Source: Thermodesulfobacteriota bacterium | GTDB taxonomy: Bacteria; Desulfobacterota; Desulfomonilia; Desulfomonilales; Desulfomonilaceae | Reading direction: 5' to 3' | DNA: 64,000 bases | Assembly (NCBI GenBank): GCA_040753915.1 | Contig: JBFMDN010000012.1 | Location: forward strand, 1-64,000 | In this document: positions 8,482 through 63,636 of the stretch, in pieces | How positions within the stretch are numbered: the stretch's first letter is position 1 | How the letters are laid out: each line of letters begins with the position of its first letter | Notes under the pieces: model-generated | Databases searched by the model: none | Seen by the model: only the letters and a program-made list of their open reading frames with translations | Told to the model about the DNA's origin: nothing | Program-made: the position numbers and the translations under genes

Positions 8482-9532
8482 TCGGCACCGCACACGTCGA
8501 ATCTGACCTGTCGGTCGTGGTCCCACCTTTAGGAGGGCCAGCTCCACGCTATCATGCGACACGAATGATTTCAATTCGCCCAGGGGGTCAGGCTTGTTTC
8601 TTGAGGAATCGAAGATGACGATAGTCTGTGAATAGGCCACTGGCATGCTCCAGACCGAGCAGGCGAGGTTAAGAGGCGACAGAAAGATCAAGAGAATAGG
8701 CCTGACCCCACCCTTCTCCTTTTCCTTGAGAAGAGCCACGTGACAACAAGCACAGCGCACCACACCGCCAAAGCAAGAGCGCATCCGTTCACAGCCTCTT
8801 TGAGCCCCATGAGCACCAAGTCCATCTGGAAACAGCTCCTTTCTTGCGAGCGTCCGTCGCTCCCGTGCAGAAGATTCCGTCTCCTACACGGGGGTCCGCT
8901 CGCGCGACGGACGCCTTCCCTCCATCTTGATGACCCGGGCAGGAAGGAGGGAATTTTTCTGTGATGGCCTGCGAGAGGGGGAGCATAAAGCGTGCCAGGA
9001 CAGCGCGTAAGGATGTTTCCTAATACAATTTGTTATTCCAATACGATAGATTTTGGAGACGCTTCGAGATCACGGCTGCCGGCAACGACGAAGGAACGAT
9101 ACGTGTCAAAATCCCGTTGTATGAAACTTGCATCAGTTAAATCAGAGGGTTATTTTTAGCTTTCTGCGTGAAAATCACTCGTGGTCCTCCACTACCGTGT
9201 CATCTTGACTCGCCCGCATTCTCCGGAGCGATGACTGCCACACATATTCAATGCGTGGCACTCATCGCAGTTGAAAACCAATGAGCCTTCGGTTGACATG
9301 GATTCATAACAGAGGTCGAGATTTCCCATCAGTGCCTGTGGAGCTCCTAGCTCATGGCAAACACGATAGTGGAACGCGGCCGTTGCTTACACGCTGTCGC
9401 TTCCGACTCGGTTTGCGAATCAGGTTCCGACCTGTTCTTGATGCGCTTCATCATAGATTCACAGGCAGCCCCCAGCACGCTGAGATCCTCCGCTGCGGGT
9501 ATGGCATTCGGGCGGAACGTCACCGCCCGCCC

Positions 9533-9781
9533 CTACTCATCTTCTTTATCTTGCTTATCTTCTTTTGGCCCGGATTCTTCTTCCGCGGCAGCATGGGACT
9601 TGATCTGTTCGGCGTATTGAACCACCTCCTTCAGAAGGGGCTCTATGACGAGGGTCCACTCGGGATGCTCCCTCAAGTTGAGCGAGCCTGTCTCCAGCAC
9701 CTTGGCTATGACAAACAATTTCGTTCGAACATCGTACAATTCTTTATGCACTTTCTCCGCGGTCCATTTCTTTTCCGACAT
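9533..9781 (-). CDS. Small acidic hypothetical protein (82 aa)
   Basis: GGAGG RBS 7 nt upstream of the ATG. The sequence is protein-like, with a KEDKQDKEDE tail. Confidence 0.4.
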   Translation of the reverse strand: MSEKKWTAEKVHKELYDVRTKLFVIAKVLETGSLNLREHPEWTLVIEPLLKEVVQYAEQIKSHAAAEEESGPKEDKQDKEDE

Positions 9782-10177
9782 TTCAGCCTCCATCCGGGAA
9801 ACTCTCCGACAAGAACCTTTCCCATGAACCCGACGCCTTGTCCGCCGTTGCTCATGGTCAATACATTCAGTATCACCGAACGACAGGTCAGGGCAACTCT
9901 CTTCCTTCGTCAGACGATTCGTGGTGACATGCTTGTAAATCAGGGCTGCAAATGGTACCTTTGGTTCAGCGGGACGCCCATGGGAAAACCCGAGCAGGGG
10001 GGGCGAATCGTTTGTATACGGTGCACGTGTGGCGCCAGCGACGTCGAAGGCGGTCGCCTGCAGTTCTTCAAGCAGGTCTTGTCGTCATGTCGGCGCGTGC
10101 TTGTGCAGGGGTTTAGGCGGCGTCGCGAAAGCGGGAAGCAAGAATCCAGGCTTTTCAAGGCGAGAGGGGTTGTGCCG

Positions 10178-11254
10178 ATGGGGATCTTGGACTTTGTCAG
10201 AAGCGAGCTGATCGATGTCATCGAGTGGATCGACGACAGTGGCGACACGCTGGTGTGGCGCTTTCCGGACCAGGACCACGCGATAAAGAACGGGGCGAAG
10301 CTGACGGTGCGAGAGAGTCAAGCGGCGGTTTTCGTCAATGAAGGAACTGTCGGAGACGTTTTCATGCCCGGTCTGTATACCCTCACCACTCAGAACCTTC
10401 CCATTCTGACCACTCTAAGGTCCTGGAAATACGGGTTCGACTCACCCTTCAAGGCAGAAGTCTACTTTGTAAGCACGAGAAACTTCCTTAACCTCAAGTG
10501 GGGGACCCAAAACCCGATCATGATGCGAGATTCCGATCTTGGGGTCGTTCGGTTGAGGGCGTTCGGCACGTACGGTATCAGGGTTGTGAATCCTCGCATA
10601 TTCATGAAGGAAGTAGTGGGAACCGAGGGGTCGTTCACGACAGACGAGATCGAAGGCCAATTGCGCAGCATGTTGGTCTCCGCATTCACGCACCGGTTGG
10701 CATCGGCCGGGATAGCCGCCCTGGACTTGGCCGCAAATTACCGCGTCATGGGTGACAGGGCCAGAGCAGGGATGGATGAAGAATTTCAGCGCTATGGTCT
10801 GTCGCTCACCATGTTCATCATCGAGAACATCTCTGTCCCGCCTGAGGTCGAAAAGATGCTCGATGTCAGGACCCAGATGGGGATAGCAGGAGACTTGGGC
10901 AGGTACACCCAATTCCAGACAGCTCAGGCCATTCCCGAGGCAGCACGAGCCGGCGGAGCAGGGGAATTCATGGGCATGGGAGCGGGAATTGCCATGGGCC
11001 ACCAAATGGCCAATGCCATGGCGGGGAGCTTCCGACAGCAGCAGACCACGGGCGCAGAAGCGGGGCAATCGGCTCGCACATTCCAGGCCGGGGCGGCGGA
11101 AAAGTTCTGCTCCCAGTGCGGCAAGCAAATATCGTCGGGAGCCAAGTTTTGCCAGGAGTGCGGCGCTCCTCAGCAGCAGGTGTGTCCTCAATGCGGAGCA
11201 GCCGCGGATACGCGGGCAAAGTTTTGTCAGGAGTGCGGAACAAAACTGGGATAA
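10178..11254 (+). CDS. SPFH/band-7 domain protein with C-terminal triple zinc-ribbon (COG4260-like)
   Basis: Residues about 1-250 form an SPFH-like region. The C-terminus has 'FCSQCGKQI...FCQECGAPQQQVCPQCGAAADTRAKFCQECG'. The upstream part of the long ORF (9281-10177) does not look coding. Confidence 0.65.
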   Translation: MGILDFVRSELIDVIEWIDDSGDTLVWRFPDQDHAIKNGAKLTVRESQAAVFVNEGTVGDVFMPGLYTLTTQNLPILTTLRSWKYGFDSPFKAEVYFVSTRNFLNLKWGTQNPIMMRDSDLGVVRLRAFGTYGIRVVNPRIFMKEVVGTEGSFTTDEIEGQLRSMLVSAFTHRLASAGIAALDLAANYRVMGDRARAGMDEEFQRYGLSLTMFIIENISVPPEVEKMLDVRTQMGIAGDLGRYTQFQTAQAIPEAARAGGAGEFMGMGAGIAMGHQMANAMAGSFRQQQTTGAEAGQSARTFQAGAAEKFCSQCGKQISSGAKFCQECGAPQQQVCPQCGAAADTRAKFCQECGTKLG

Positions 11255-25231: not shown

Positions 25232-25238
25232 GCAATAG

Positions 25239-25604
25239 GATTTCATAAGTACGGTTACGTATTCTGCCACGACTCAGTCGGGGATTTGCGCTCTGAAGGA
25301 GCGCACCTTGAGTAGCCACAGGTTTCAACCTGTGGTTCGGCACGGCACAACCACCAACCGACCCTGAAAGGGTCGACCAAGAGGATTCTCATCGCCAGGT
25401 ATAGGAACCGATCATGAATGAGCCTTGGTTCTCCTGCACTTACATGGTGGACCCCGTCAGGGTCCCCCCTTGTCGGTTTTTTCCTTCCGTGGGTTGAACC
25501 CCACGGCTACTCATGGTATGCCCCTTCGGGGCATGAAGCAATCAATGATCACCATCATTCCTCTTCTTAATAACCCTGAGATACGTAACCGTACTTATGA
25601 AATC
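25239..25604. repeat. MITE-like 366-bp palindromic element with perfect 24-bp terminal inverted repeats
   Basis: 25239-25262 GATTTCATAAGTACGGTTACGTAT is the exact reverse complement of 25581-25604. Mirrored internal hairpins are present (CCACAGGtttcaaCCTGTGG and CCGTGGGttgaaCCCACGG). It fills the intergenic gap between the HK stop (25231) and the truB stop (25650). Confidence 0.6.
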
Positions 25605-25649
25605 GTGTACTAAGCGACCAACGCGTCAGTCAGATCCGTTACCGACGTA

Positions 25650-29230: not shown

Positions 29231-29420
29231 CTTATTCATGAAACGGTGTACTAAGTGGTCGACGGCACAAATACGGTACCGTATCTGCACCGCGGTGTAC
29301 ATGGTGAACGCATCGTTGGCACTGTAGGGGCGGGCCTCGTGCCCGCCCTGGGCACCCATATGAGGTGCCCCTACGTCGTGGCAGATTACGTGACCGTATT
29401 TAGGAAATGGAGCACTAAGT
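29231..29420. repeat. Second, shorter palindromic element related to the 25.2-kb MITE-like repeat
   Basis: The boxes 'CTTATTCATGAAACGGTGTACTAAG' and 'GGAAATGGAGCACTAAG' flank an element with the palindrome ATACGGTACCGTAT (29271-29284) and GC hairpins. The arms 'TACGGTACCGTATCTGCACC' and 'GTCGTGGCAGATTACGTGACCGTAT' resemble the 24-bp TIR of the first element. Confidence 0.5.
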
Positions 29421-51908: not shown

Positions 51909-52790
51909 TTAGCCCACTGGCACAGAGGCTCTATCCCGGAATAGAAATTCGATATCAAGGCGTGTTCCCGCTCCAGGGCCCGACAACAGCTTCATCATAT
52001 CCGAGCAGCGCTTAATGTTCGCAAGGCCCATCCCTGCCCCGAACCCCATCTCACGTATCCACGGCGGAGCAGTAGAGTACCCTGGCTGGAGCACCTTAGT
52101 GAGATCCTCGATACCGGGACCATGATCCACTGCGGACACTTTCAGCCGATCCTTCCGCACGTCCACGGTAATAATTCCCCCTACATCCGTATGAATCACC
52201 AGGTTCATTTCCGCTTCGTACACCGCCACCGACACCCGCCGAACGATCGGCGGGGCCACACCGAGGCGCTGGAGAGATTTCTTGATCTGGCTCGAGGCCT
52301 TGCCCGCGTTGTCGAAGTCCCTTTCGCTCACAGTGAACCGCAGGATCACGCTCGTGTCGTCCGACTCGATATCCTCGAAAATGTGTCGGGCTCGGTAAGA
52401 CTGGAGCTTTTCCGCTTCCTTCTTCTGAAAGCTGACATCCATTTCTTTGAGCAATGCCCGAATGATCGTGCCAGTCGTCACGATCCCGACAAGCTTGCCA
52501 CCCTGATCGACCACCGGAAGTCTGCCGAAGCCCTCGCGGTCGAGATTGCTCACCGCCTCGATCACGGACGCATCCTTGAGGACGGATTTTACCTGAGTCG
52601 TCATGTGTTGACTCAAGGGCTCGTGCAACTGTCCCCGTACCGTGACGTCGATCACGTCGGTCATGCTTATGATCCCCACCATCCTGTCGCCTTCCATGAC
52701 AGGGACACCGGAGATTCTTTTGGCCCGCATGAGCTCTTTGACCTCATTCACGGTCATGGAAGGAGTCACGGTGATTACCTTGCGGGCCAT
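51909..52790 (-). CDS. CBS-pair plus GHKL ATPase protein
   Basis: A tandem CBS region ('VITVTPSMTVNEV...ISGVPVM', 'LPVVDQGGKLVGIV') is followed by HATPase_c ('DHGPGIED', 'GAGMGL'). The start is uncertain, at about 52790. Confidence 0.65.
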   Translation of the reverse strand: MARKVITVTPSMTVNEVKELMRAKRISGVPVMEGDRMVGIISMTDVIDVTVRGQLHEPLSQHMTTQVKSVLKDASVIEAVSNLDREGFGRLPVVDQGGKLVGIVTTGTIIRALLKEMDVSFQKKEAEKLQSYRARHIFEDIESDDTSVILRFTVSERDFDNAGKASSQIKKSLQRLGVAPPIVRRVSVAVYEAEMNLVIHTDVGGIITVDVRKDRLKVSAVDHGPGIEDLTKVLQPGYSTAPPWIREMGFGAGMGLANIKRCSDMMKLLSGPGAGTRLDIEFLFRDRASVPVG

Positions 52791-52855
52791 GACATTTTCC
52801 ACTCTCGTGGTATAGATCAGCTCCTGGACTTTCGTTATGTTTTGAGTTTCGATGA

Positions 52856-53227
52856 TCACCAGGAACCTCTCTCGATTTTCACGGGGCCTCTCCCGGGAAG
52901 GCCTGCCTGGTACAACCGTCCGCACGCTTCGTACATTGTGTAACCCACTCGAATGAGCGTAATGCCGGATTCTCGTGCCAATTCGATTGTTTCCGGAGGC
53001 GGCGTCTTATCGCGGACAAACACGACGACCTCGATTCCGGCCATTTCCGCTGTACGCACTACCTGAGGATTGGTCAGGCCTGTCATGAGTACCATGCCCT
53101 CTGCGCCGAAGGCGAGAACGTCGCTCATGAGATCCGCGGCTCCCCCAATGGGAAAATCGGTTTCATGATCGTGGCTATCCACAATGATATGCCCGTCCAG
53201 GACCGTGACTAACTCCCGGATTTTCAT
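52856..53227 (-). CDS. DRTGG-domain protein (second copy)
   Basis: 'HDHETDFPIGGAADLMSDV...GMVLMTGLTNPQ' is present. Confidence 0.6.
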   Translation of the reverse strand: MKIRELVTVLDGHIIVDSHDHETDFPIGGAADLMSDVLAFGAEGMVLMTGLTNPQVVRTAEMAGIEVVVFVRDKTPPPETIELARESGITLIRVGYTMYEACGRLYQAGLPGRGPVKIERGSW

Positions 53228-53534
53228 CTGCGCTCCAGGTCGAACTCACAATGTCGAAAATCACACTTGATCATTGCGTCGTTTGCTTGTCAAGCACAAC
53301 TGGCCCTGCAGCACTGTTTCATAGTTCTAATTCTCACATACTGTGAAACTTCCTGCTTTGCAAGGGGCCTTGGTGATGTGCTATCTGGATCGTGGCTCAC
53401 GCGGAAGAGCCGGAAGCGTCATCGATCATCACGGGGGTATCGAACGTCAGCCGTTGCCCCGTACGTCAGTGAGGTGAGCGTGTATACGGGAGATAGGCCG
53501 AACCCTGGATTGGCACAGTTTCTTGCCGATCACA

Positions 53535-55348
53535 TGGCAGAAAGGCACGACGAGAGTGATGATGACTATGCTGTCTCTGCCTTTTGCCGGCCGATCGAGA
53601 CCACAAAGAACTCCCACATCTTTCGGATGCACGGCTATCATCTTGGCAAGAAACCTTACGATGCGGTACAGGCGTACATCAAACACTACACGCGGGAAGG
53701 GGATGTGGTGCTCGATCCTTTTTGCGGCTCGGGCAGCACAGCTCTCGGGGCCCTGGTGCTCGGTCGAAAGGCCGTGGCCATTGACGTCTCTCCAGCCGCC
53801 ACGTTCATCACCCGGTTTTATGTTTCCGCTTGCGATCCTTGCGATTTCAAGGCGCGCTTCGACACGATGTGTGCTCGGGTGGAAAGGGAAATGTCGCACC
53901 TCTATGGGACTGTATGCCACCGGTGCGGAACAGGCGCGACCATCCACTACGTGGTCTATTCCAACTACTACGTCTGTCCCGGCTGCGGCCGGTCGGTAAG
54001 TCTCTTTGAGGCATCCCAAGATCGACGACGGTGTTGCCCCCAATGCCTGAAATGGGACGGGAGAATCGTGCGGATCGGCCCGCCCGCCGAAGCGGTTGCA
54101 AACGGACCGGTAGCCGTGAATTTCACTTGTCACGGAACCTGTTCGCCCAAAAGAATGACCCGGTCGATCACCGGCCCGTACGAGGAGCAAGAAGCGTTTC
54201 GATCCATTGATCTCCAGACTCTTGCCCGTCTCGAATCCGAACCGATCCCGTACCCTCATCCCGACCGCTTCATGATGAACGTCTCGGATCCGGAAGCTCC
54301 GTGGGGAGACGAATGGCGCCCGAGTCGCAACTTCCGTACGGTGCGGGACCTTTTTACCTATCGCAATTTTCGAGCCCTCGCAGCGCTCATGGACGCTGCG
54401 GGCAGCGACGAGGATTTACGTGCGGTCATCACGTCCGGAATGCTTGCAGCCAGTAGGAAGGCGCAACACCTTTCGGGCGGTGGAGGCTACATCCCGGGGA
54501 ACTGGGCTCTGCCACCCGTTTCTAAGCAGCGCAATGTCTTGGAATCCCTGAGAACCATTTTCGCCCGTACCCTGCAGGCCAAGCGAGCCCTGGCGAGCCT
54601 ACTCAAGAGCCAGGACGTGTGCATATCGACCCAGTCCGCTGCAGCACTGCACGGCATTCCAGACTGCTCGGTCGACTATATCTTCACGGATCCGCCCTAC
54701 GGCGGATCGATCCAGTACGGGGAGCTCAACTTCATTTGGGAAGCATGGCTCGGTTTCAACACCAGGTGGCACGAGGAAGAAATCGTTGTGAACCGGTCTC
54801 GGGGTCGCACCATTGAGGACTGGGCGGCCATGATGCGAGCCGCTTTGTCGGAATGCTTCCGCGTTCTCCGGCCTGGCAGGTGGCTTTCTCTGTGCTGGCA
54901 CGACGGCTCCATGGGCACATGGCCGGTTATTCACCAGATCCTTTCGGAAGTAGGCTTTGTGACGGACTCGTCTGGAACCGCGCAGACCATTGACACGGGA
55001 GCAAACACGTACAACCAGCGAGTGTGGGACAAGGCCGTGAAACGGGATCTGGTGATCAACGTTCGGAAGCGGCGGAGCCACGAATCAGCGACAACGTCCC
55101 CGGCAGATGCCACTCCGCAAAACAGCTTTCGCGACTTGGCCCGCGTGGTCATCTCCTCCTTTCTCTCCGCCAATCCCGGTGCGACCAAGGATCGGGTGTA
55201 CGATCATCTTGTGGGATTCATGTTCCAAAAGGGGAGATTGGAGCAGCATAACTTTGACAAGTTGCTGGAGAGTGTGGCGGAACGGGTTCGGGACGGGAGT
55301 CGCGGCTGGGTATTGAAATCCGGAGTCCGAGAGAATCCGGAGTCCTAA
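53535..55348 (+). CDS. Orphan DNA methyltransferase (N6A/N4C type; motif I then Zn-ribbon insert then DPPY)
   Basis: 'VVLDPFCGSGSTALGA' is the FxGxG/AdoMet motif. 'CHRCG...CPGCG...CCPQC' is a zinc-ribbon-like insert. 'IFTDPPYGGSIQY' is catalytic motif IV. The ORF is open from 53267, but the first approximately 270 nt look like a promoter, so I chose the ATG at 53535. Confidence 0.75.
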
Positions 55349-55351
55349 CAT

Positions 55352-55367
55352 CCTACACAAATGTAGG
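55352..55367 (+). terminator. Short hairpin just after the methyltransferase stop
   Basis: CCTACAcaaaTGTAGG with no U-tract. Confidence 0.2.
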
Positions 55368-55996
55368 TATTCTTCGAGAAGCTGACCACCACGTATGACA
55401 TCCACTCCCCTGGGAGATGCTCATCACCAGGCCCCTCACCTGCCTGCCCTTCCGAAACCAACCGTCCCAAGGCCTCACATCCTCTGTCACTTCAGCGAGA
55501 TCCCCGACATTTGCCGTTCTTTGGCTTAGTTCTTGCTCCTCCCCGGGGTGATCGTCATTCGTTGCACCAACACTTCTGGGGCTGAGAGGTGTTTTCCTTG
55601 ATTGGGAAGGCCGAGAGCAGATTGGTCGGCCGGGCCGACGGGAAAGGAGGATATCGAGGTCATGGCCGATTCCATTGCCCGACCTTCGGCTCTTTCTCTG
55701 ACTTGCTGGGTAAAGCCTCAGCCTCCCCCGGCCAGGCATGGAAGCGCGTCCATTTGTCGCTACCCGCCCCCTCACTTCCATGCCTCGAGAGGTCGGGGAA
55801 TTCCGTGAGCAAGGGGGTATTCTCATGGGGAGAGGATTTCCTACGGCCCAGTGGCGGTGCCGGAGAATTGGGAGAGCTCCCGCTCCACCTGCCTTGACCG
55901 TCGATTCGTCGGCCTGCGGACAGAATCCCGTCATCACGCCATGGTGGCACGAAACCGACGCGCGCGGATCCCATGTAACGCACCAAAGGAGGATCG

Positions 55997-57541
55997 ATGG
56001 AGATCGGCGCTGATCGGGTCCTGCGAGACCTGACGGACCACCTTCTCAGTCCGCTCTGCAATCTCGATCGAGCCCTGGAGCCGATCCTGGACCTATTGGA
56101 CCTGTTGGCGTCCGCGGAGCGCGCGGTGGTTTCGTTAAAGAACACCCATACGGAGCGACACATAGTCTGGACTTCGCGGAAGCGAGCTGATGAGGGCATT
56201 CCAAGCTCGAAAGCGTCGGAATACGATCTTCCCCCGGAGATGCTCCGGTCCGCCGAGCTCGTTTCGGCCACCGACGCGACTGAAGAGCAATTGCCGCAGA
56301 GTGAGAACCGGGAGATGTCGACCCCTGAGGCAACAAAGTCGTTTGTGGAGGTTCCCATTGTGCTGCGGGGAACGCCCGTGGGCGCTATGCGAGTCTATTT
56401 TCCCCACGAGAAACGAGAGGTGGTCATGGATCGCGTGAGCCTCATCGAGAAGATAGCCCAACTCGTGGCCCAGACGCTCGATCTCAGGCAGCGGATCACC
56501 CTGTGGCACGAGGCTCATATCGCGGCAAATACCGCTCTCAAGGCTGAGATGCTAGAGCGAGTAGCCCATTTTCTTTCCCATCGCGAGACGAGTCCCATGG
56601 GCCCCATCCTTAGACTAGTTCGAGACGCTGCCGAGTCTGTAGCACCGATCTTGATCCAAGGGGAAGCGGGGGTTGGGAAGACTCTCGCCGCTCACGCGAT
56701 TCACGAGTTGAGCGACAGAAGAGCGCTTCCATTAGTAAGGATAAACTGCCTCGTGCACCGACACGATCCGTTGCGTATCCTCGATGGATTGCGAAGCGGG
56801 ACATGGGCCTCAGAACGGATCGGGAGCCCCGGCGAGCGGACCTGCCGGTGGACGCTCTTGCTCAGCTCCGTGGAAGCGGTGTCACTCTCGGCCCAGGCGG
56901 AGATCCTCTCGTTCCTCAGACGATCCATGGAAATGCACGACTATCCCAGGGGGGCTGCCTGCAGAATCGTTGCAACATCTCGGAAGGACCTAGCAGGAGA
57001 GGTAAGGAAAGGCGCTTTCAGTCCTGAGCTGTATAAACGCATTTCCACCATTCTGATCGAGATTCCGCCTCTTCGGGACCGTCGAGAAGACGTCTTGCGA
57101 CTCACCCAGTTCTTTTCTACACGGGTGAGCAAGGAATCGGGTCACAACCTCACGTTCACGCCACGATCGCTGGAGCTCCTGAACCGTCATATCTGGCCCG
57201 GCAACGTCACGGAGCTGGAAAATCTTGTTGAGCGCATGGGATTCTCCGGCGAGGATCGCGAGATCGACGTGGACGATCTGTCTCCCTTCCTTTCTCCGGC
57301 CTTGGCTCCTTTAGACGCCGTGGACAACGGCTCTCTGGATTCGCTGCAACGTCTCGAGAAACGGAGTGTTTTGAGCGCGTTGGAAAGAAACAAGTGGATC
57401 CAAGCTCGGGCTGCACAAGATCTGGGCATAACAATGCGACAGATGGGGTATCGGATCAAGAAGTACGACCTCGAAGGTCTCGTCAAGAAAAATCGAGGTC
57501 ATCGAAGAAGAGAAAGGCAGGCCGGTAGCCCCCTCGCATGA
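55997..57541 (+). CDS. GAF plus sigma54-activator-like AAA (degenerate GAFTGA/Walker B) plus Fis-type HTH regulator
   Basis: Strong RBS AAAGGAGG. Walker A is 'GEAGVGKT'. The GAFTGA position reads 'RSGTWAS' and the Walker B position reads 'WTLLLSSVE' (DE replaced by SS). 'IWPGNVTELEN' and the C-terminal HTH 'IQARAAQDLGITMRQM' are present. Confidence 0.75.
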   Translation: MEIGADRVLRDLTDHLLSPLCNLDRALEPILDLLDLLASAERAVVSLKNTHTERHIVWTSRKRADEGIPSSKASEYDLPPEMLRSAELVSATDATEEQLPQSENREMSTPEATKSFVEVPIVLRGTPVGAMRVYFPHEKREVVMDRVSLIEKIAQLVAQTLDLRQRITLWHEAHIAANTALKAEMLERVAHFLSHRETSPMGPILRLVRDAAESVAPILIQGEAGVGKTLAAHAIHELSDRRALPLVRINCLVHRHDPLRILDGLRSGTWASERIGSPGERTCRWTLLLSSVEAVSLSAQAEILSFLRRSMEMHDYPRGAACRIVATSRKDLAGEVRKGAFSPELYKRISTILIEIPPLRDRREDVLRLTQFFSTRVSKESGHNLTFTPRSLELLNRHIWPGNVTELENLVERMGFSGEDREIDVDDLSPFLSPALAPLDAVDNGSLDSLQRLEKRSVLSALERNKWIQARAAQDLGITMRQMGYRIKKYDLEGLVKKNRGHRRRERQAGSPLA

Positions 57542-57553
57542 GGCACGCCATGA

Positions 57554-57748
57554 GAAACTGTCTCAAAACTCGGGACACACCAAAAACCGTAGCACGATTG
57601 GGCGTCGATGCGTGGAAAGGCACCCTCACCCCAACCCTCTCCCAGCGGGAAAGGGAGCAGGAAGAATCCCCTCTCCCCCGCTTCGGGGGAGAGGGTCAGG
57701 GTGAGGGGGTGTGCCACGACTATCGCGGACTGCCGGCTTTTGAGACAC
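57554..57748. repeat. About 195-bp structured repeat element, copy 1 (short TIRs GTCTCAAAA/TTTTGAGAC, nested hairpins)
   Basis: It is about 90% identical to 63028-63222. The inner perfect hairpin is CCCTCTCCCCC-gcttc-GGGGGAGAGGG. The outer arms are CACCCTCACCCCAACCCTCTCCC and GGGAGAGGGTCAGGGTGAGGG. Confidence 0.8.
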
Positions 57749-58024
57749 CTTCAGACGCCCGTCCCTCCGGTCTGAGAGCCTCCTATACATGTTCTCGGCA
57801 TATGGGAAGCGGAAAGAACTTTTTAGCAACCGCTATAATCATCGCCAAACAGCCCTTTGCGTGATTGGCGGCCGTCTCCAGGGTCCAGACCACTGGGGCT
57901 TCCCCTGATTTGCTGGATTGAAGAAACACGTTGCTGTATATTCGCGCGTGGCCCGCGATGGTGGGCGGTCTCTCTGCCATGTTGGCCGCAGTAGGGAGTG
58001 AGGAATGTTCGTCGGGAGAGGACA

Positions 58025-58849
58025 ATGGAGGTTCCATCAACAGACGAGCTCTTTCGATGTCTCGGACTGACGGACGAGCCGTTCGGGATGTATTACGCCG
58101 ACGAGGAGCCTGCGGTTTCAATTGCTCCAAAACCCAGTGTGCTGCCCTCCGTGGAGGACGAAGCTGCGGGCACGGTGGACTGGCAATCCATTCACCTGTC
58201 ATTTGCGTGCGTCCTGGGTGTGATGTGGCGTGCGCGTAAGAAAAACTGTGCGGCTGTGTTCGACAGACAACGATTCGGGTGTTTGGGTGGAGCCTTTTAC
58301 CTGGGTTTTCTGAAGCCTCAACTGGACATGGTTGCTCGATACGTGTCCACAGGCATCCCTAATCAGATGGAGGGAGAGCGATACCTTCGGTCTGCGGAAG
58401 TTGCCAGGCACTTCTTTGAAACGATCGATCCCAGGCCGGCTCCGGCCAGATACTGCATTTTCAAGCCGATAGGTCAATTCTCCCAAGGCGATCGGCCGGA
58501 GCTGATCGTATTTTTCGGCCGGCCGGAATGCATTGCAGGCCTCCATCAGCTCGCTACCTTCGTTACGGACGATTTCGAGGTTGTGAGCTCGCCCTTCGGA
58601 TCCGGATGCTCGACAATCGTAACGTGGCCCCTGTACTACCTGGCCCAGGGCAAACCGCGGGCGGTTATTGGGTGCTGGGATCCTTCTGATAGGAAGTTCT
58701 TGCGACCGGACGAGATAACGTTCACCGTTCCTGCCGTTCTGTTCGATCTGATGCTCAACCGCTGGAGAGATTCTTTTTTGACGACGAGCACTTGGCGGGT
58801 GGTGCGGCAACGGGTTGATCGGAGCAAGCGTGTATGGGGAGAAGAGTGA
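58025..58849 (+). CDS. Hypothetical protein (possibly DUF169/COG2043-like)
   Basis: Long ORF with a GGAGAGG RBS. The family assignment is from memory only. Confidence 0.4.
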   Translation: MEVPSTDELFRCLGLTDEPFGMYYADEEPAVSIAPKPSVLPSVEDEAAGTVDWQSIHLSFACVLGVMWRARKKNCAAVFDRQRFGCLGGAFYLGFLKPQLDMVARYVSTGIPNQMEGERYLRSAEVARHFFETIDPRPAPARYCIFKPIGQFSQGDRPELIVFFGRPECIAGLHQLATFVTDDFEVVSSPFGSGCSTIVTWPLYYLAQGKPRAVIGCWDPSDRKFLRPDEITFTVPAVLFDLMLNRWRDSFLTTSTWRVVRQRVDRSKRVWGEE

Positions 58850-59079
58850 TCGTTCCGTGACCGCGGTTTGCGCGATTCTCAGCGGGTTCTTTGGTGGCTG
58901 TGCGTTTTCAAACGATCAATTGGCCTCGGCCCAAGGTTGACACACGCGTCCCTCGGCTTTTCGAGAGAAAAGGGGACCGCCCCTCCTAAAGTATTTGTTA
59001 CTTCAGTACATTATCGTTTCGAGCATCAATATCTTCGTCTCTGGCTATTCGAGATCACACACTGACGTTGCTACTCCCT

Positions 59080-59439
59080 TCATTTGTCCAGTCCTTCCAT
59101 ATGCGCATCCCAGGCGTCCCAGTACTTGCTATTGCATTCCTGGATGCATATGGCATATCCGGTATGGTACCTTTTTCCGGAGGAGCGTTTACCGGAGAAG
59201 TATGGATCCACTCCAAAAACGGATCGGCAGTGTTGTTGGCACCCCTGAAGATCCAGTGGGTCTCCGTCATATCCGCTGTATCCGTAATCCTGGTGGGTAG
59301 CCTGTGCAGGACCCGGGGTTACCCGATCGTGGGGCAAGGCTTCCGAGGGTCCGCGCGCGTGGGCAGATAACGCAGCAACCAGTGCCACGGCCACCACTAC
59401 TGCGGTCAGAGCTATCAGTGATAAGCGTGCAGGGTTCAT
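59080..59439 (-). CDS. Small secreted protein with twin Cx3C motifs
   Basis: The signal peptide is 'LIALTAVVVAVALVAALSAHA'. The cysteines are 'CQQHC' and 'CIQEC'. Confidence 0.45.
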   Translation of the reverse strand: MNPARLSLIALTAVVVAVALVAALSAHARGPSEALPHDRVTPGPAQATHQDYGYSGYDGDPLDLQGCQQHCRSVFGVDPYFSGKRSSGKRYHTGYAICIQECNSKYWDAWDAHMEGLDK

Positions 59440-59741
59440 GGCATCTCCTCCTCTCGCTTGGGGACTCGGTCTTATTCCCTTAGATGCACATTCGGTTCCG
59501 GGGATTCAGAAACAGTACCCTTCCTCACGGAGCGTTTGTGAGTGCGACAGACATTTCTCTCGGCAACGGCTGTACTGTTGCGTTGTACCGAGAATCTACC
59601 GGTCTCGGCGCCGACATGTCAGGTTCTCAGGACACGAATGTCATGGTATCATGCCAATAATGTGCACGAAAGCTCACGAGCTGCCCCGGAGCACGGGGAC
59701 GACCGGCTCCCGAGACCTGGAACTGCAAAGGAGGTTTCGGT

Positions 59742-61694
59742 ATGGGAAATCCCCCCAAATGGTATGACTCCCACCTGCCTGAATTCCGCGAAACAGCGCA
59801 CATTCGAGGGCCTGAGGAGTACAAGGAGCTCTACACGAGGTCCCTTGAGGATGCTGACGCCTTTTGGTCCCAGAACGCTCGGGAGTACCTCACGTGGGCA
59901 AGAGAGTGGGACTTCGTCATGCAACACGACGTCCGGCAAGGACGCGTAGAATGGTTTGGGGGAGGCAAGCTCAACGCGTGCTTCAACTGCCTCGACCGCC
60001 ATGTTGCCCGGCATCCGCACAGGATTGCGTATTATCGAGAAGGGAACGGTCCTTCGAACAGCCGTATCGTGACCTACTCCAAGTTGCTGCAATGGGTAAA
60101 CAAGCTGTCGGCGTTCTTGAAATCGAGAGATATCTCGCGGGGACAGCGGGTTGTCATCTATATGCCTAACATGCCGGAGCTTCCTGCAGCGATGCTGGCA
60201 TGCGCCAGGATCGGAGCAGTTCACGTGGTGATTCATCCTGGGTACAGCGCGCATTGGCTGGCAGAACGCATTCAGGAATGTGAAGCACGAATCTTGATCA
60301 CCGCGAATACTCTTGATGAGGGTGAACGCATTACCTCTCTCAGGGAAAAAGCGCTTCAGGCAGTGCAGAGGTGTCCGGAAGTAGAAACCGTCGTCGTGTG
60401 CGACCGGGACGCACGTCAGAGAACGGACAAGGAAGTGGGATGGCACGACATTATGAGCGACCCGCACCTGCCTGCGGCCGTCCCTTCGGAGCCGATGTCG
60501 TCTGAAGATCCTTTGTTCATAATGTTTACCGGGGGCAACACGGGGAAGCCCAAAGGTTTGGTCCATACGCACGGTGGGTATCTCCTCTGGGCAGCCATGA
60601 CCACCCGGCTGATTTTCGACCTGAGGGAAGACGATCTCTTCTGGTGCACCAGCGACCTAGCCTGGATAACAGGTCACACGTTGAGCGTGTACGGAGCTCT
60701 CATCAACGGCGTCAGCTCGGTCATCTGCGATCGTGGCCCGGATTCTTCCGTTCCGGATCGGTACTGGAAAATCATAGAGCGACTCCGGGTGACAAAGCTC
60801 TGCACCGAGCCGACAACAATCCGGACGCTTTCCTCGTTCGGGACTGAGCCTTTGAAGAAGCACGACCTTTCGTCCCTTCGAATCCTGGGGACCTCGGGGG
60901 AACCTTTGGCCCCTGAACTGTGGCACTGGCTTTATGACCACGTGGGAGGGGGTCGTTGTCCGATCATCGATGCATGGTGGCAGGCGGAGAGCGGAGGGCC
61001 CATGATGGCCCCCTTACCAGGCGTGCACCCTCTGAAGCCTGGGTCGGTGGTTGCGCCCTTTCTCGGGGTCGTTCCGATTATTCTGGACCTGAACACGGGC
61101 GATGAAACAAAGTTCCCAAATCAGGAGGGAGCGTTTTTCATAGGACGGCCGTGGCCGGGAATAGCCCGGACTGTGCTGGGAGACCATGCTGGCTATATGG
61201 AGACGTATTTTGCTCCATTTGAAAACCTATTCATCACCGGTGACGGGGCAAAGGTAGACGAAGATGGCTACTACTGGATGACCGGTCGGATCGATGACGT
61301 GATCAACGCAGGCGGCCACCGTATTGGGGCCTGGGAAATCGAAAACGCTCTGGCTGCCCATCCGGATGTGGCTGAGGCAGTGGTGGTAGGATTCCCCCAC
61401 CCGCGCAAAGGACAGGGACTCTACGCGTTCGTGACACTGTCCTCAGGGCCGGAGATGCGGGAACGAGCTCAAGAGTCCCTCTCGGAATGGCTCGATCTGA
61501 GGATTGGCCCCCTCGCGGTTCCCGACGTATTTCAATGGGCAGAAGAACTTCCCAAGACTCGCAGCGGAAAGATTCTCAGACGTCTTCTCCAGCGCATCGC
61601 AGCGGGTCAGATCGGAGATCTGGGTGACACGACGACTGTTGCCAATCCCGCTTCGCTCGACAAGCTGATTGCAGACGCGAGATCTACCCGTTGA
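59742..61694 (+). CDS. acs: Acetyl-CoA synthetase (AMP-forming)
   Basis: 'FTGGNTGKPKG' and 'WWQAESGG' are present, with Acs architecture along the full length. RBS AAGGAGG. Confidence 0.9.
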   Translation: MGNPPKWYDSHLPEFRETAHIRGPEEYKELYTRSLEDADAFWSQNAREYLTWAREWDFVMQHDVRQGRVEWFGGGKLNACFNCLDRHVARHPHRIAYYREGNGPSNSRIVTYSKLLQWVNKLSAFLKSRDISRGQRVVIYMPNMPELPAAMLACARIGAVHVVIHPGYSAHWLAERIQECEARILITANTLDEGERITSLREKALQAVQRCPEVETVVVCDRDARQRTDKEVGWHDIMSDPHLPAAVPSEPMSSEDPLFIMFTGGNTGKPKGLVHTHGGYLLWAAMTTRLIFDLREDDLFWCTSDLAWITGHTLSVYGALINGVSSVICDRGPDSSVPDRYWKIIERLRVTKLCTEPTTIRTLSSFGTEPLKKHDLSSLRILGTSGEPLAPELWHWLYDHVGGGRCPIIDAWWQAESGGPMMAPLPGVHPLKPGSVVAPFLGVVPIILDLNTGDETKFPNQEGAFFIGRPWPGIARTVLGDHAGYMETYFAPFENLFITGDGAKVDEDGYYWMTGRIDDVINAGGHRIGAWEIENALAAHPDVAEAVVVGFPHPRKGQGLYAFVTLSSGPEMRERAQESLSEWLDLRIGPLAVPDVFQWAEELPKTRSGKILRRLLQRIAAGQIGDLGDTTTVANPASLDKLIADARSTR

Positions 61695-61761
61695 AAGATA
61701 CGCGAGTCGTCTGAAGGGGCGTCCTCTTGCGGAGGACATTGTGCTGGCCCGGGGATTGAAC

Positions 61762-62712
61762 CTATCGTCTGGGCCCGCCGCCGGAAGTGCTTACCTCTGG
61801 AGCAACCGGTGCGCGGTCCACCGCAACGGACCAACCTGCCCGAGGATCCTGACCCTTCGGAATCTGCGTCGGCTTGGGCATTGCTATCGAAGATGTCGAC
61901 GGCTTGCGCGTCTCAGCAGGTTTGGATCCGTCTCGCTGCGCTGCTTGAGATCGTACACGCTGCGCCGGACGCCGCGCCGCTGCTGGTTGGGCCTGTGCCG
62001 CTTCCCCGGCTGGAGGATAATATTGAACCGTCGTACCTTCCGGAGTGATCGTTGTAACTCTTACCGCCCCGGGAGGCAAGCTGTCATCAAATACTCCCTC
62101 ACCCGAACCAGGCTGATCCGGAGAAGGTGACGAAGGATGTGTGGCCGTGGCAGGCCGAGCTTGGCGCGTTACGGCGGGGGCTGGCTGCTGGGGAGCCTGA
62201 GGCTGGGGTGCGGAATACTGGACTGGAGGCTGAACCGCTGCGGGTTGCTGTTGCCATTCGGACTGGAGCCCCTGCTGAGATCCACCTTGCCACGAGTAAC
62301 CTTGACCATACCCGTAAGACTGGGGCGGATATCCCTGCGGAGGATACTGATAATAACCCTGCTGCGGATATTGATGGCCTTGCTGGGGATACTGATAACC
62401 CTGCTGAGCTGGGGGATAGCCGTAACCCTGCTGAGGATAATCGTACCCTTGGGCTTGCGGGTATCCCTGCTGGGGATAGCCATAACCTTGAACGGCTTCC
62501 TGCTGGGGATAAGTGCCGTACGGGCCTTGCGGAGCTTGCCCCTGCCCGGCCATCCCACCATAGTACTGCGGGCTGTCAAACTGGTTCCCCGACTGGCTCC
62601 CCCAAAGACCGAGCCCTCCGGGCCCGAGTACCGAGTCGAGAAGCCCCTGTCCCAGGGCAGTCCCGGGAATTACGACCAGCACTGCCAATATCGCCACTGC
62701 TATCCGGGTCAT
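61762..62712 (-). CDS. Secreted Q/Y/G/P-rich tandem-repeat protein
   Basis: RBS AAGGAG. The signal peptide is 'MTRIAVAILAVLVVIPGTALG'. About 150 aa of 'YPQQGYG/YQYPQQG' repeats are followed by a P/A/Q/S-rich tail. Confidence 0.6.
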   Translation of the reverse strand: MTRIAVAILAVLVVIPGTALGQGLLDSVLGPGGLGLWGSQSGNQFDSPQYYGGMAGQGQAPQGPYGTYPQQEAVQGYGYPQQGYPQAQGYDYPQQGYGYPPAQQGYQYPQQGHQYPQQGYYQYPPQGYPPQSYGYGQGYSWQGGSQQGLQSEWQQQPAAVQPPVQYSAPQPQAPQQPAPAVTRQARPATATHPSSPSPDQPGSGEGVFDDSLPPGAVRVTTITPEGTTVQYYPPAGEAAQAQPAAARRPAQRVRSQAAQRDGSKPAETRKPSTSSIAMPKPTQIPKGQDPRAGWSVAVDRAPVAPEVSTSGGGPRR

Positions 62713-63027
62713 AGCAAAACTCCTTGCGGCTTTACGAGAAGATCAGCCGTGCATTTCGGCTGTTTCTTCTGACACATATCGTAAGTCATTCTACAGGACT
62801 TGTCCATCGACGTCAAGCTCATCTTTTAATTGCCCGCCCAACCGACTACACCACTTGCTATTAAACTGTCTCTTCGGCCTGGAGACCGCCACCGTAGGAT
62901 GGGTCGCGCGTAGCTCTCTCGATTTCCGTATGTCCGTTTTCGTACGGGTCACTCATTGAGCTACCGTCTCGACGCGGGATGGACTTCTCTCCATCATTCA
63001 TCTGGATCAAAGGGCGAGACGCCGTTC

Positions 63028-63222
63028 GAAACTGTCTCAAAACTCGGGACACACCAAACATCGTAGCACGATTGGGCGTCGATTCTGGGAAAGGCACCCT
63101 CACCCCAACCCTCTCCCAGAGGGAGAGGGAGCCGAAAGAATCACCTCTTCCCCGCTTCTGGGGAGAGGGTCAGGGTGAGGGGATGTGCCACGATTATCAC
63201 GGGCTGCCGGCTTTTGAGACAC
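63028..63222. repeat. About 195-bp structured repeat element, copy 2 (direct orientation relative to copy 1)
   Basis: It aligns base-for-base with 57554-57748 at about 90% identity, with the same TIRs and hairpin arms. Confidence 0.8.
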
Positions 63223-63636
63223 TTTCGTTCTACCCCTCAAATCAACGGGCGAGACGCCCGCTCTGTAGTGTTGCGCCTCCTACCGGGCTGCAGTCCGGCC
63301 GTGCTAGTCCCTCGCACATGGGAACCGGACAGAAGTCTCGGCAGAGCTCTCCCGCCCTCCAACATACGCTGTGCCAGCTTCCCGTGCCCGGAAGGCACAA
63401 GGGAATTTGGCTTTAATGGTATAAGACACTTGAAACGAGGGGTAGTTTGTCATGAAAATCTTCGCGCCGCATCTTCGCTTTACTCACCGTGCGGCAGACG
63501 TGAGGCAAGATAGGAGAAACCGTGTTGGAATTCTGCTCGGATTAGGAGGGGCCTGTACGGGTGCTTCGAGAAGCGTCCTGATTTCAGGCTGTAACTGGAT
63601 TTTGAGACGATTCGGGGAACTGCGATTGTCTGCTGC

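Follow-up and report, generated by a model that had tools for sequence, protein, structure and literature searches.

Does a pair of direct repeats around a handful of genes mark a segment that moves as a unit? The question arises in a 64,000-nt stretch of the Thermodesulfobacteriota genome assembly GCA_040753915.1 (contig JBFMDN010000012.1, positions 1 to 64,000, forward strand; hereafter the window), where two copies of a hairpin-rich repeat lie on either side of four genes. A first-pass annotation, made from the letters alone, took the repeats for elements of the repetitive extragenic palindrome (REP) type and suggested that they bracket a recombination-prone or translocatable segment, or that they act as transcribed structured RNAs at gene 3' ends. 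We arrive at a different reading. Each repeat is a copy of a nonautonomous, 199-bp MITE (miniature inverted-repeat transposable element), the two window copies are independent insertions of a family of about 100 copies, and their flanking of the four genes is coincidental. We give this reading a probability of roughly 85%.

The repeat pair and its dispersed family

Within the window, a repeat search and alignment found a single long direct pair, 57545-57752 and 63019-63226 (208 nt, 90% identity), and aligning copies from other loci set the bounds of the element proper at 199 nt. The first-pass annotation had described the pair correctly, as copies about 90% identical in the same orientation, and its start coordinates are exact; the extent that it gave, 195 bp, stops 4 nt short of the right-hand ends. 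The inverted termini that it reported, the 9-mers GTCTCAAAA/TTTTGAGAC, are real and are contained in a longer, 15-nt terminal inverted repeat (TIR), GAAANTGTCTCAAAA / TTTTGAGACACYTTC, at the element ends. The features of the pair are as follows:

57554..57752, + strand: copy 1 of the repeat, read here as a MITE, 199 nt, left to right on the + strand
57554..57568, + strand: left TIR of copy 1, GAAACTGTCTCAAAA, with its partner TTTTGAGACACCTTC at 57738-57752
57623..57707, no strand: central nested-hairpin module of copy 1, with its counterpart in copy 2 at 63097-63181
63028..63226, + strand: copy 2 of the repeat, read here as a MITE, 199 nt, orientation as copy 1
63028..63042, + strand: left TIR of copy 2, with its partner at 63212-63226
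63024..63027, no strand: target-site duplication GTTC of copy 2, with the second GTTC at 63227-63230

Copy 1 starts 12 nt past the stop codon of a sigma-54 activator gene, and copy 2 has the start of a Q/Y-rich protein gene on one side and the 3' end of a GT9 glycosyltransferase gene on the other. The copies have identical runs of 31-32 nt in common, and a core 21-mer and a left-arm 24-mer are each confined to them within the window (chance expectation 0). Across the family, the TIR pairs are kept in 32-35 of 35 aligned copies. The central module consists of an outer stem, CCCTCACCCC / GGGGTGAGGG, around two CCCTCTCCC-loop-GGGAGAGGG hairpins. The long nested hairpin described in the first-pass annotation is borne out by the predicted fold, with a minimum free energy of -99 kcal/mol on the + strand (z = -5.3 versus shuffled sequence) and -112 kcal/mol on the - strand (z = -7.1). 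The loop of internal hairpin 2 (57681-57685 in copy 1; alignment columns 130-136) is inverted in 5 of the 35 full copies, reading GAAGC for GCTTC over the same stem, a flip-flop like that of palindromes undergoing hairpin-mediated inversion. The element has no coding capacity. Its sole open reading frames (ORFs) are the spurious, low-complexity ones that had been pointed out at the start, and they occur on both strands; they are called as hypothetical proteins in one ENA bin and one NCBI metagenome-assembled genome (MAG), and a database search with the translated element found just 8 relatives, each a translation of another copy.

How widely is the element dispersed? A left-arm 22-mer matches four contigs of a related Syntrophaceae MAG, and a left-arm 19-mer matches 103 metagenome stretches, nearly all in the JGI metagenome Ga0067045, which holds the same population as the window. 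Together with the window, these sources contain about 108 distinct 16-nt left flanks, which approximates the number of insertion sites, and the loci have the element alone in common, not the flanks. The mean pairwise identity among the 35 full-size copies is 89.6% (range, 80-97%). Long contigs carry 2-3 copies each, or about one per 20-40 kb; the two copies in a 64-kb window match the density of the family. Two or more copies are found in 12 of the 103 loci, at spacings of 0.2-12.7 kb and in the same (8 cases) or opposite (6 cases) orientation; one locus (L007) holds a direct pair 5249 bp apart.

The junctions of these copies identify the kind of element. A perfect 4-bp direct repeat flanks 25 of the 48 unique complete copies, where 0.19 would be expected by chance, and the flanks of 11 further copies match at 3 of 4 positions; 16 different tetramers are duplicated. 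TIRs, 4-bp duplications, small size, and absent coding capacity together make the element a MITE: it is noncoding and below ∼500 bp, it ends in TIRs, its duplication has a fixed length, and its dispersed copies show presence/absence polymorphism. The family, its ends, and the length of its duplication are direct observations.

The family also has relatives. A diverged sister family is ∼71-77% identical over the left 100 nt, with the same TIR core and different arms, and in L069 a CPBP-protease-like gene lies between two inverted left-type ends. Other related repeats share the CCCTCACCC-CCCTCTCCC module only. The places of these two kinds of repeat are L069 1087-1187, L072 5272-5372, L040 3262-3361, and L060 13925-14024, and L004 4158-4193, L032, and L076. 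When the element was compared with plasmids and Escherichia coli genomes by BLAST, only the central hairpin module was matched, in unrelated bacteria, and the arms never were. These look-alikes are 75-92% identical and intergenic, occur in unrelated Proteobacteria, and are built like the module, with two CCCTCTCCC/GGGAGAGGG hairpins inside the CCCTCACCCC outer stem. The matches come from 121 plasmid records, with up to 15 places per Azospirillum replicon, and are rare in E. coli (14 of 5426 genomes). Their resemblance to the central module may reflect common origin or convergence. Examples are:

L233 401-483: Enterobacter asburiae plasmid, glpE-glpD intergenic region
L235 1501-1537: E. coli plasmid, ilvC-ppiC intergenic region
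L234: Azospirillum brasilense

Insertion at palindrome centers

The flanks of the copies are halves of palindromes, and when the element and one duplication are removed, they join into a GC-rich hairpin. The reconstructed empty sites have a mean folding energy of -15.7 kcal/mol, compared with -9.6 ± 4.0 kcal/mol for random 46-mers, and the duplicated bases lie in the loop; the center of the duplication is within 0.5 nt of the dyad axis in 14 of the 22 sites with an intact duplication. A GT[AG]GG head, on the proper strand and within 25 nt, accompanies 23 of 45 copies versus 6.9% of controls, and arrays of GTAG-headed palindromes in both orientations adjoin copies. The target palindrome families are:

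Family 1: GACGGGCG-NNN-CGCCCGTC, with the element found in either orientation
A family with GGGCAGGTTTGAAACCTGCCC
A family with GGGCACCC-ACAAG-GGGTGCCC
A family with GGGGCGGGC-CTYG-TGCCCGCCC
A family with GTAGGGTAGCCTTTYAGGCTGCC

Both the loci and the window also contain unoccupied members of these families. The palindromes that matter here within the window are:

57753..57777, no strand: right half of a family-A palindrome, AGACGCCCGTCCCTCCGGTCTGAGA, abutting copy 1; its left half is missing or degenerate
63244..63262, no strand: unoccupied palindrome resembling family A, AACGGGCGAGACGCCCGCT, located 18 nt downstream from copy 2
29324..29378, + strand: unoccupied REP doublet with outward GTAG heads, GTAGGGGCGGGCCTCGTGCCCGCCC-T-GGGCACCCATATGAGGTGCCCCTAC

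Occupied and empty versions of a site can be compared directly. In L002, a MAG contig, the element sits in GTAGGATAGCCTTTCC, whereas the orthologous site in L029, a JGI contig, has an intact GTAGGGTAGCCTTTCAGGCTGCC; the flanks of the two are 93.5% identical over 2.6 kb. In addition, the window doublet at 29324-29378 has paralogues in L050, L080, L060, L056, and L089 whose second hairpin loop is occupied by the element. This doublet lies within a repeat unit of ∼170 nt (29250-29420) with TIR-like ends, AAATACGGTACCGTATC / GATTACGTGACCGTATTT; the unit has more than 20 related copies in the loci, at least 5 of them with the element in the second hairpin loop, and the window copy is unoccupied. 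Two other candidate comparisons failed, namely L003 with L015, whose intergenic regions are unrelated, and L001 with L069. Like the ends and the duplication, the dyad-centered target is seen directly, and so, through the empty sites, is the mobility of the element. The choice of target would also account for where the copies lie in relation to genes, since landing in REP-like palindromes should bring them near gene 3' ends. With a crude ORF finder, 38 of 49 copies were placed downstream of an ORF end at a distance of no more than 400 nt, and of 25 classifiable sites not one falls between divergent genes.

It is possible that targets are chosen by structure rather than by sequence, and that this lineage encodes one or more transposases that recognize extruded hairpins, cruciforms, or long palindromic dyads. 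We offer this idea tentatively and would not bet on it. It draws on the fact that at least three unrelated palindrome families are hit at the dyad center, at 16 tetramers and in either orientation, and on the equal precision with which a second, unrelated MITE of 172 bp enters the internal hairpin loops of the element itself. If the idea were true, parasites would be nested at three levels, from repeat unit to MITE to MITE. The responsible transposases, if identified, would be candidates for structure-directed insertion.

The 172-bp MITE has the TIR GCATAGGCGTTAA and a duplication of ∼9 bp, which is perfect in L055 and L229 and has 1-2 mismatches in L010 and L040. Almost all of its insertions lie in the loops of the primary element's two internal hairpins, in both orientations, and it occurs in about one-third of the primary copies, with ∼50 of its ends among the loci (L229 15615-15786, L074 1-106, L010, L055, L040, and ∼30 more). 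Its nesting explains many of the "partial" matches to the primary element. At the site of window copy 2, the ENA and JGI assemblies (99.5-99.7% identical) carry it and the window does not, which is a recent polymorphism; the empty allele is:

63150..63165, no strand: internal hairpin 2 loop of copy 2, empty allele of the 172-bp MITE

How might the primary element move? A transposase supplied in trans would bind both TIRs, most likely a DDE enzyme that makes 4-bp staggered cuts in the target, as IS5-type or IS3-type enzymes do. Insertion would take place at the dyad center of a GC-rich REP-like palindrome, often one with a GTAG or GTGG head, and would duplicate four loop-centered bases. The palindrome arms would then flank the element, and the whole unit would remain one long hairpin. 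Presumably, a 4-bp duplication combined with TIRs fits IS5-type or IS3-type enzymes best, and the transposase family is deduced from these two features because no autonomous partner was found. When the window and 108 loci were examined for inverted end pairs spaced by 600-4000 bp, these proved to be separate MITE copies or chance cores only; the gene between the ends of one such pair is CPBP-protease-like and does not encode a transposase. Three or more loci never had a repeated segment of at least 500 bp in common. A scan of viral contigs for the 15-nt TIR gave 120 chance single matches and no credible inverted pair, and a search for the TIR core in full-text literature returned nothing relevant.

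Several points weigh against reading the window repeats as two independent MITE insertions. Copy 1 has no intact duplication (ATGA on the left, AGAC on the right), and copy 2 has its duplication but no obvious hairpin loop around it. No autonomous partner with the same ends turned up in any of the DNA covered, which comprised the window, 839 kb of metagenome loci, and viral contigs. Some of the target REP families sit in larger repeat units, and some occupied sites could have spread as composites rather than through separate insertions. Finally, the gene contexts rest on the crude ORF finder. As for copy 1, about one-quarter of all copies have mismatched flanks, with clear flank chimeras between adjacent hairpins in L056 and L089, and copy 1 may be a product of this type, given its family-A right half-palindrome without a matching left half.

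The bracketed genes and the alternative readings

The genes on the left of and between the copies are listed below. Those between the copies agree with their description in the first-pass annotation.

55997..57541, + strand: sigma-54-dependent transcriptional activator gene, left neighbor, outside the element
58025-58849, + strand: DUF169 gene, between the copies
59080-59439, - strand: gene for a 119-aa protein, between the copies
59742-61694, + strand: acetyl-CoA synthetase gene (acs), between the copies
61762-62712, - strand: gene for a Q/Y-rich 316-aa protein, between the copies

Other assemblies contain the same locus. The window is 99.7% identical to ENA ERZ1433278 bin2_scaffold-0004 (232,978 bp), and JGI contig Ga0067045_1028097 matches its positions 52463-63163 at 99.5-99.7% identity. 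Other Ga0067045 contigs are ∼90-96% identical to a GTDB representative MAG that bears the label uncultured Syntrophaceae, and the element-bearing NCBI MAG is labelled Thermodesulfobacteriota, labels that agree with the deltaproteobacterium-type host proposed at the outset. Outside its own cluster, no relative of Acs exceeds 67% identity, and the lineage is therefore poorly sampled; relatives at 60-62% have at most a small upstream gene in common, and even the nearest, at 67% or less, are too distant for a comparison of synteny.

Could the four genes and the two copies around them be a translocatable unit of composite type, or a cassette acquired recently, with the repeats as its ends, moved by a transposase acting on the outer ends or by recombination? 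Pairs of MITEs are in principle able to mobilize the DNA between them, as composite transposons. The copies here are direct and 5474 bp apart, and short-read assembly yields the inter-repeat segment essentially as its own contig, a Logan contig of 5261 bp with Acs that corresponds to window positions 57794-63054, from 42 nt past copy 1 to the first 27 nt of copy 2. However, that contig stands alone because of an assembly break at the repeats. No target duplication is common to the outer flanks, ATGA and GTTC, and copy 2 has a private GTTC/GTTC duplication; therefore, the pair was not inserted as a unit. The 90% identity of the copies equals the family average, and thus they are not a recent duplicate pair. 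The segment's G+C content (0.55-0.60) equals that of the flanks, and none of its four genes (58025..62712) is a mobility gene. In the two other assemblies that span it, from ENA and JGI, it occupies this locus and not another, and close pairs of copies are frequent in this genome. The copies, counted at about 100 sites, show no tie to segment boundaries, the very outcome that the first-pass annotation had named beforehand as speaking against its translocatable segment. We consider a cassette extremely improbable. The term "recombination-prone" holds in the generic sense that about one-quarter of copies have mismatched flanks and some are chimeras, but it does not hold as a property of this segment. 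For the segment, the only consequence is 199 bp of direct 90% homology, through which the 5.47 kb between the copies could on rare occasions be deleted.

Nor is the REP label apt for the element, although it was rightly described as a repeat that is hairpin-rich and dispersed and has inverted repeats at its termini; what it targets are the REP-like palindromes. An ordinary REP or REPIN palindrome, spread through single-stranded intermediates by a REP-associated tyrosine transposase (RAYT; a Y1 HUH transposase), would likewise be palindromic, extragenic, numerous, and mostly near gene 3' ends, and GTAG-headed REP-like palindromes are plentiful in the same genome. Those palindromes, however, are split by the element and not part of it, and unoccupied ones exist. 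The element is not a 20-40-nt imperfect palindrome with a 5' GTAG head, since it is 199 nt long with 15-nt TIRs and a foot that lacks GTAG, and REPs spread without target-site duplication whereas its copies are flanked by variable 4-bp duplications. To our knowledge, RAYT/IS200-type elements are not expected to produce such duplications, given Y1 transposition. In length, the element is several times the 21-65 nt of REPs (PMC1525189). We noticed no RAYT or Y1 transposase gene in the window, where no scan aimed at one was made. All in all, a RAYT-spread REP is highly improbable here. An IS200/IS605-type palindrome-associated transposable element, a retron msr/msd, and IS110 bridge-RNA targeting were ruled out by the TIRs and the variable 4-bp duplications, and the element has no adjacent reverse transcriptase or transposase gene. 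In the remaining alternative, the copies would be, or would have turned into, structured RNAs with a function at gene 3' ends (mRNA stabilizers, terminators, or small RNA precursors) and would be conserved by selection. The fold is very stable on both strands, the copies lie mostly downstream of ORF ends and at none of the 25 classifiable sites between divergent genes, and MITE-derived small RNAs and terminator-like MITEs have been documented elsewhere (PMC10969869). Yet the 3'-end location already follows from REP-like palindrome targeting, and orientation relative to the upstream gene shows no bias (31 sense, 24 antisense). An Rfam search of 57300-58000 at a permissive E-value gave only generic microRNA-hairpin matches of at most 32 bits, against thresholds of 37-137, and a search of the whole 64 kb at gathering score gave 0 matches, with no tRNA, riboswitch, or known small RNA. 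The consensus fold of the 35 copies shows no covariation, with a term of +0.36 and a single compensatory change in only 3 of 43 pairs, and stem variation is mostly one-sided or pair-breaking, so that variation among copies looks like neutral decay. T-tract terminators are absent from the element save for one weak consensus match on the - strand. Thus, the structured-RNA suggestion of the first-pass annotation finds no support, and selection for such a function is unlikely, though individual copies may have been exapted as RNAs.

The window contains two further dispersed repeats. Between a histidine kinase gene and truB, at 25232-25615, lies a MITE-like repeat of ∼370 nt with a perfect 22-nt TIR, TTTCATAAGTACGGTTACGTAT, and several small internal hairpins, copies of which occur at 76-91% identity in at least 8 metagenome loci. 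An intergenic repeat of ∼225 nt at 9234-9460 has 12 copies at 71-86% identity in metagenome loci and no Rfam match. It lies in a gene-poor region of ∼1.2 kb (8990-10200), and the part of a listed 657-aa ORF that covers it, upstream of ∼10205, is probably spurious.

Comparison with known mobile elements

REPs are transposition hot spots for insertion sequences (ISs) of five families, IS3, IS110, IS4, IS256, and IS5, and the ISs that target them are IS1397 and ISKpn1 (IS3), ISPsy8 and ISRm22 (IS4), ISNm1106 (IS5), and ISPpu9, ISPpu10, and ISPa11 (IS110) (PMC1525189, PMC3184786). Like these ISs, the element described here inserts specifically into repetitive extragenic palindromes. However, they are autonomous, 1-2.5 kb long, and encode a transposase, whereas the element is 199 bp and noncoding; unlike them, it accepts several palindrome families with different loop sequences. 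The IS110-type members have no TIRs and no variable duplications, and the element has both. IS1397 makes a short duplication of 3-4 bp. The element works like a REP-targeting IS but is a noncoding derivative.

Among MITEs, the best-known deltaproteobacterial example is Chunjie of Geobacter uraniireducens, which is 178-235 bp long, has TIRs, is flanked by direct repeats, and is predicted to form a very stable hairpin (PMC3184786). The element is similar in size and in these features. In contrast, Chunjie has an A+T-rich sequence, TIRs of 21 bp, and direct repeats of 9 bp (PMC3184786), and the element is G+C-rich, with 15-nt TIRs, 4-bp duplications, and palindrome centers as targets; we saw no sequence relationship between them. 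Prokaryotic MITEs are typically A+T-rich and insert in A+T-rich intergenic DNA, according to a 2024 review (PMC10969869), and a term search of the text of that review found no mention of REP targeting. A literature search found no reports of a MITE or REP in Syntrophia. The target palindromes fit the features of REPs and bacterial interspersed mosaic elements, which are short imperfect palindromes with a 5' GTAG or GTGG head, occur in arrays and inverted doublets, and are extragenic (PMC3333891), but the element itself is longer and has TIRs and target duplications. The pneumococcal BOX, RUP, and SPRITE repeats are small repeats inserted into one another (PMC10969869), which parallels the 172-bp MITE within the element and the element within the ∼170-nt repeat unit. 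Here, however, nesting is position-specific, in hairpin loops and in both orientations, as opposed to the loose clustering of BOX, RUP, and SPRITE.

What follows for this genome and beyond? For annotation, a false lead is removed: there is no cassette and no RNA gene to record, and the "hypothetical proteins" across the element are spurious. The element also accounts for the breaks that short-read assemblies of this organism show here. Furthermore, an undescribed G+C-rich MITE family is added from a poorly sampled syntrophic lineage. Targeting of palindrome centers has so far been documented mainly for full-length ISs, and here a second MITE uses the first as its landing pad. The bracketed segment itself is ordinary; it is the target preference that is unusual for a MITE, though known for ISs.

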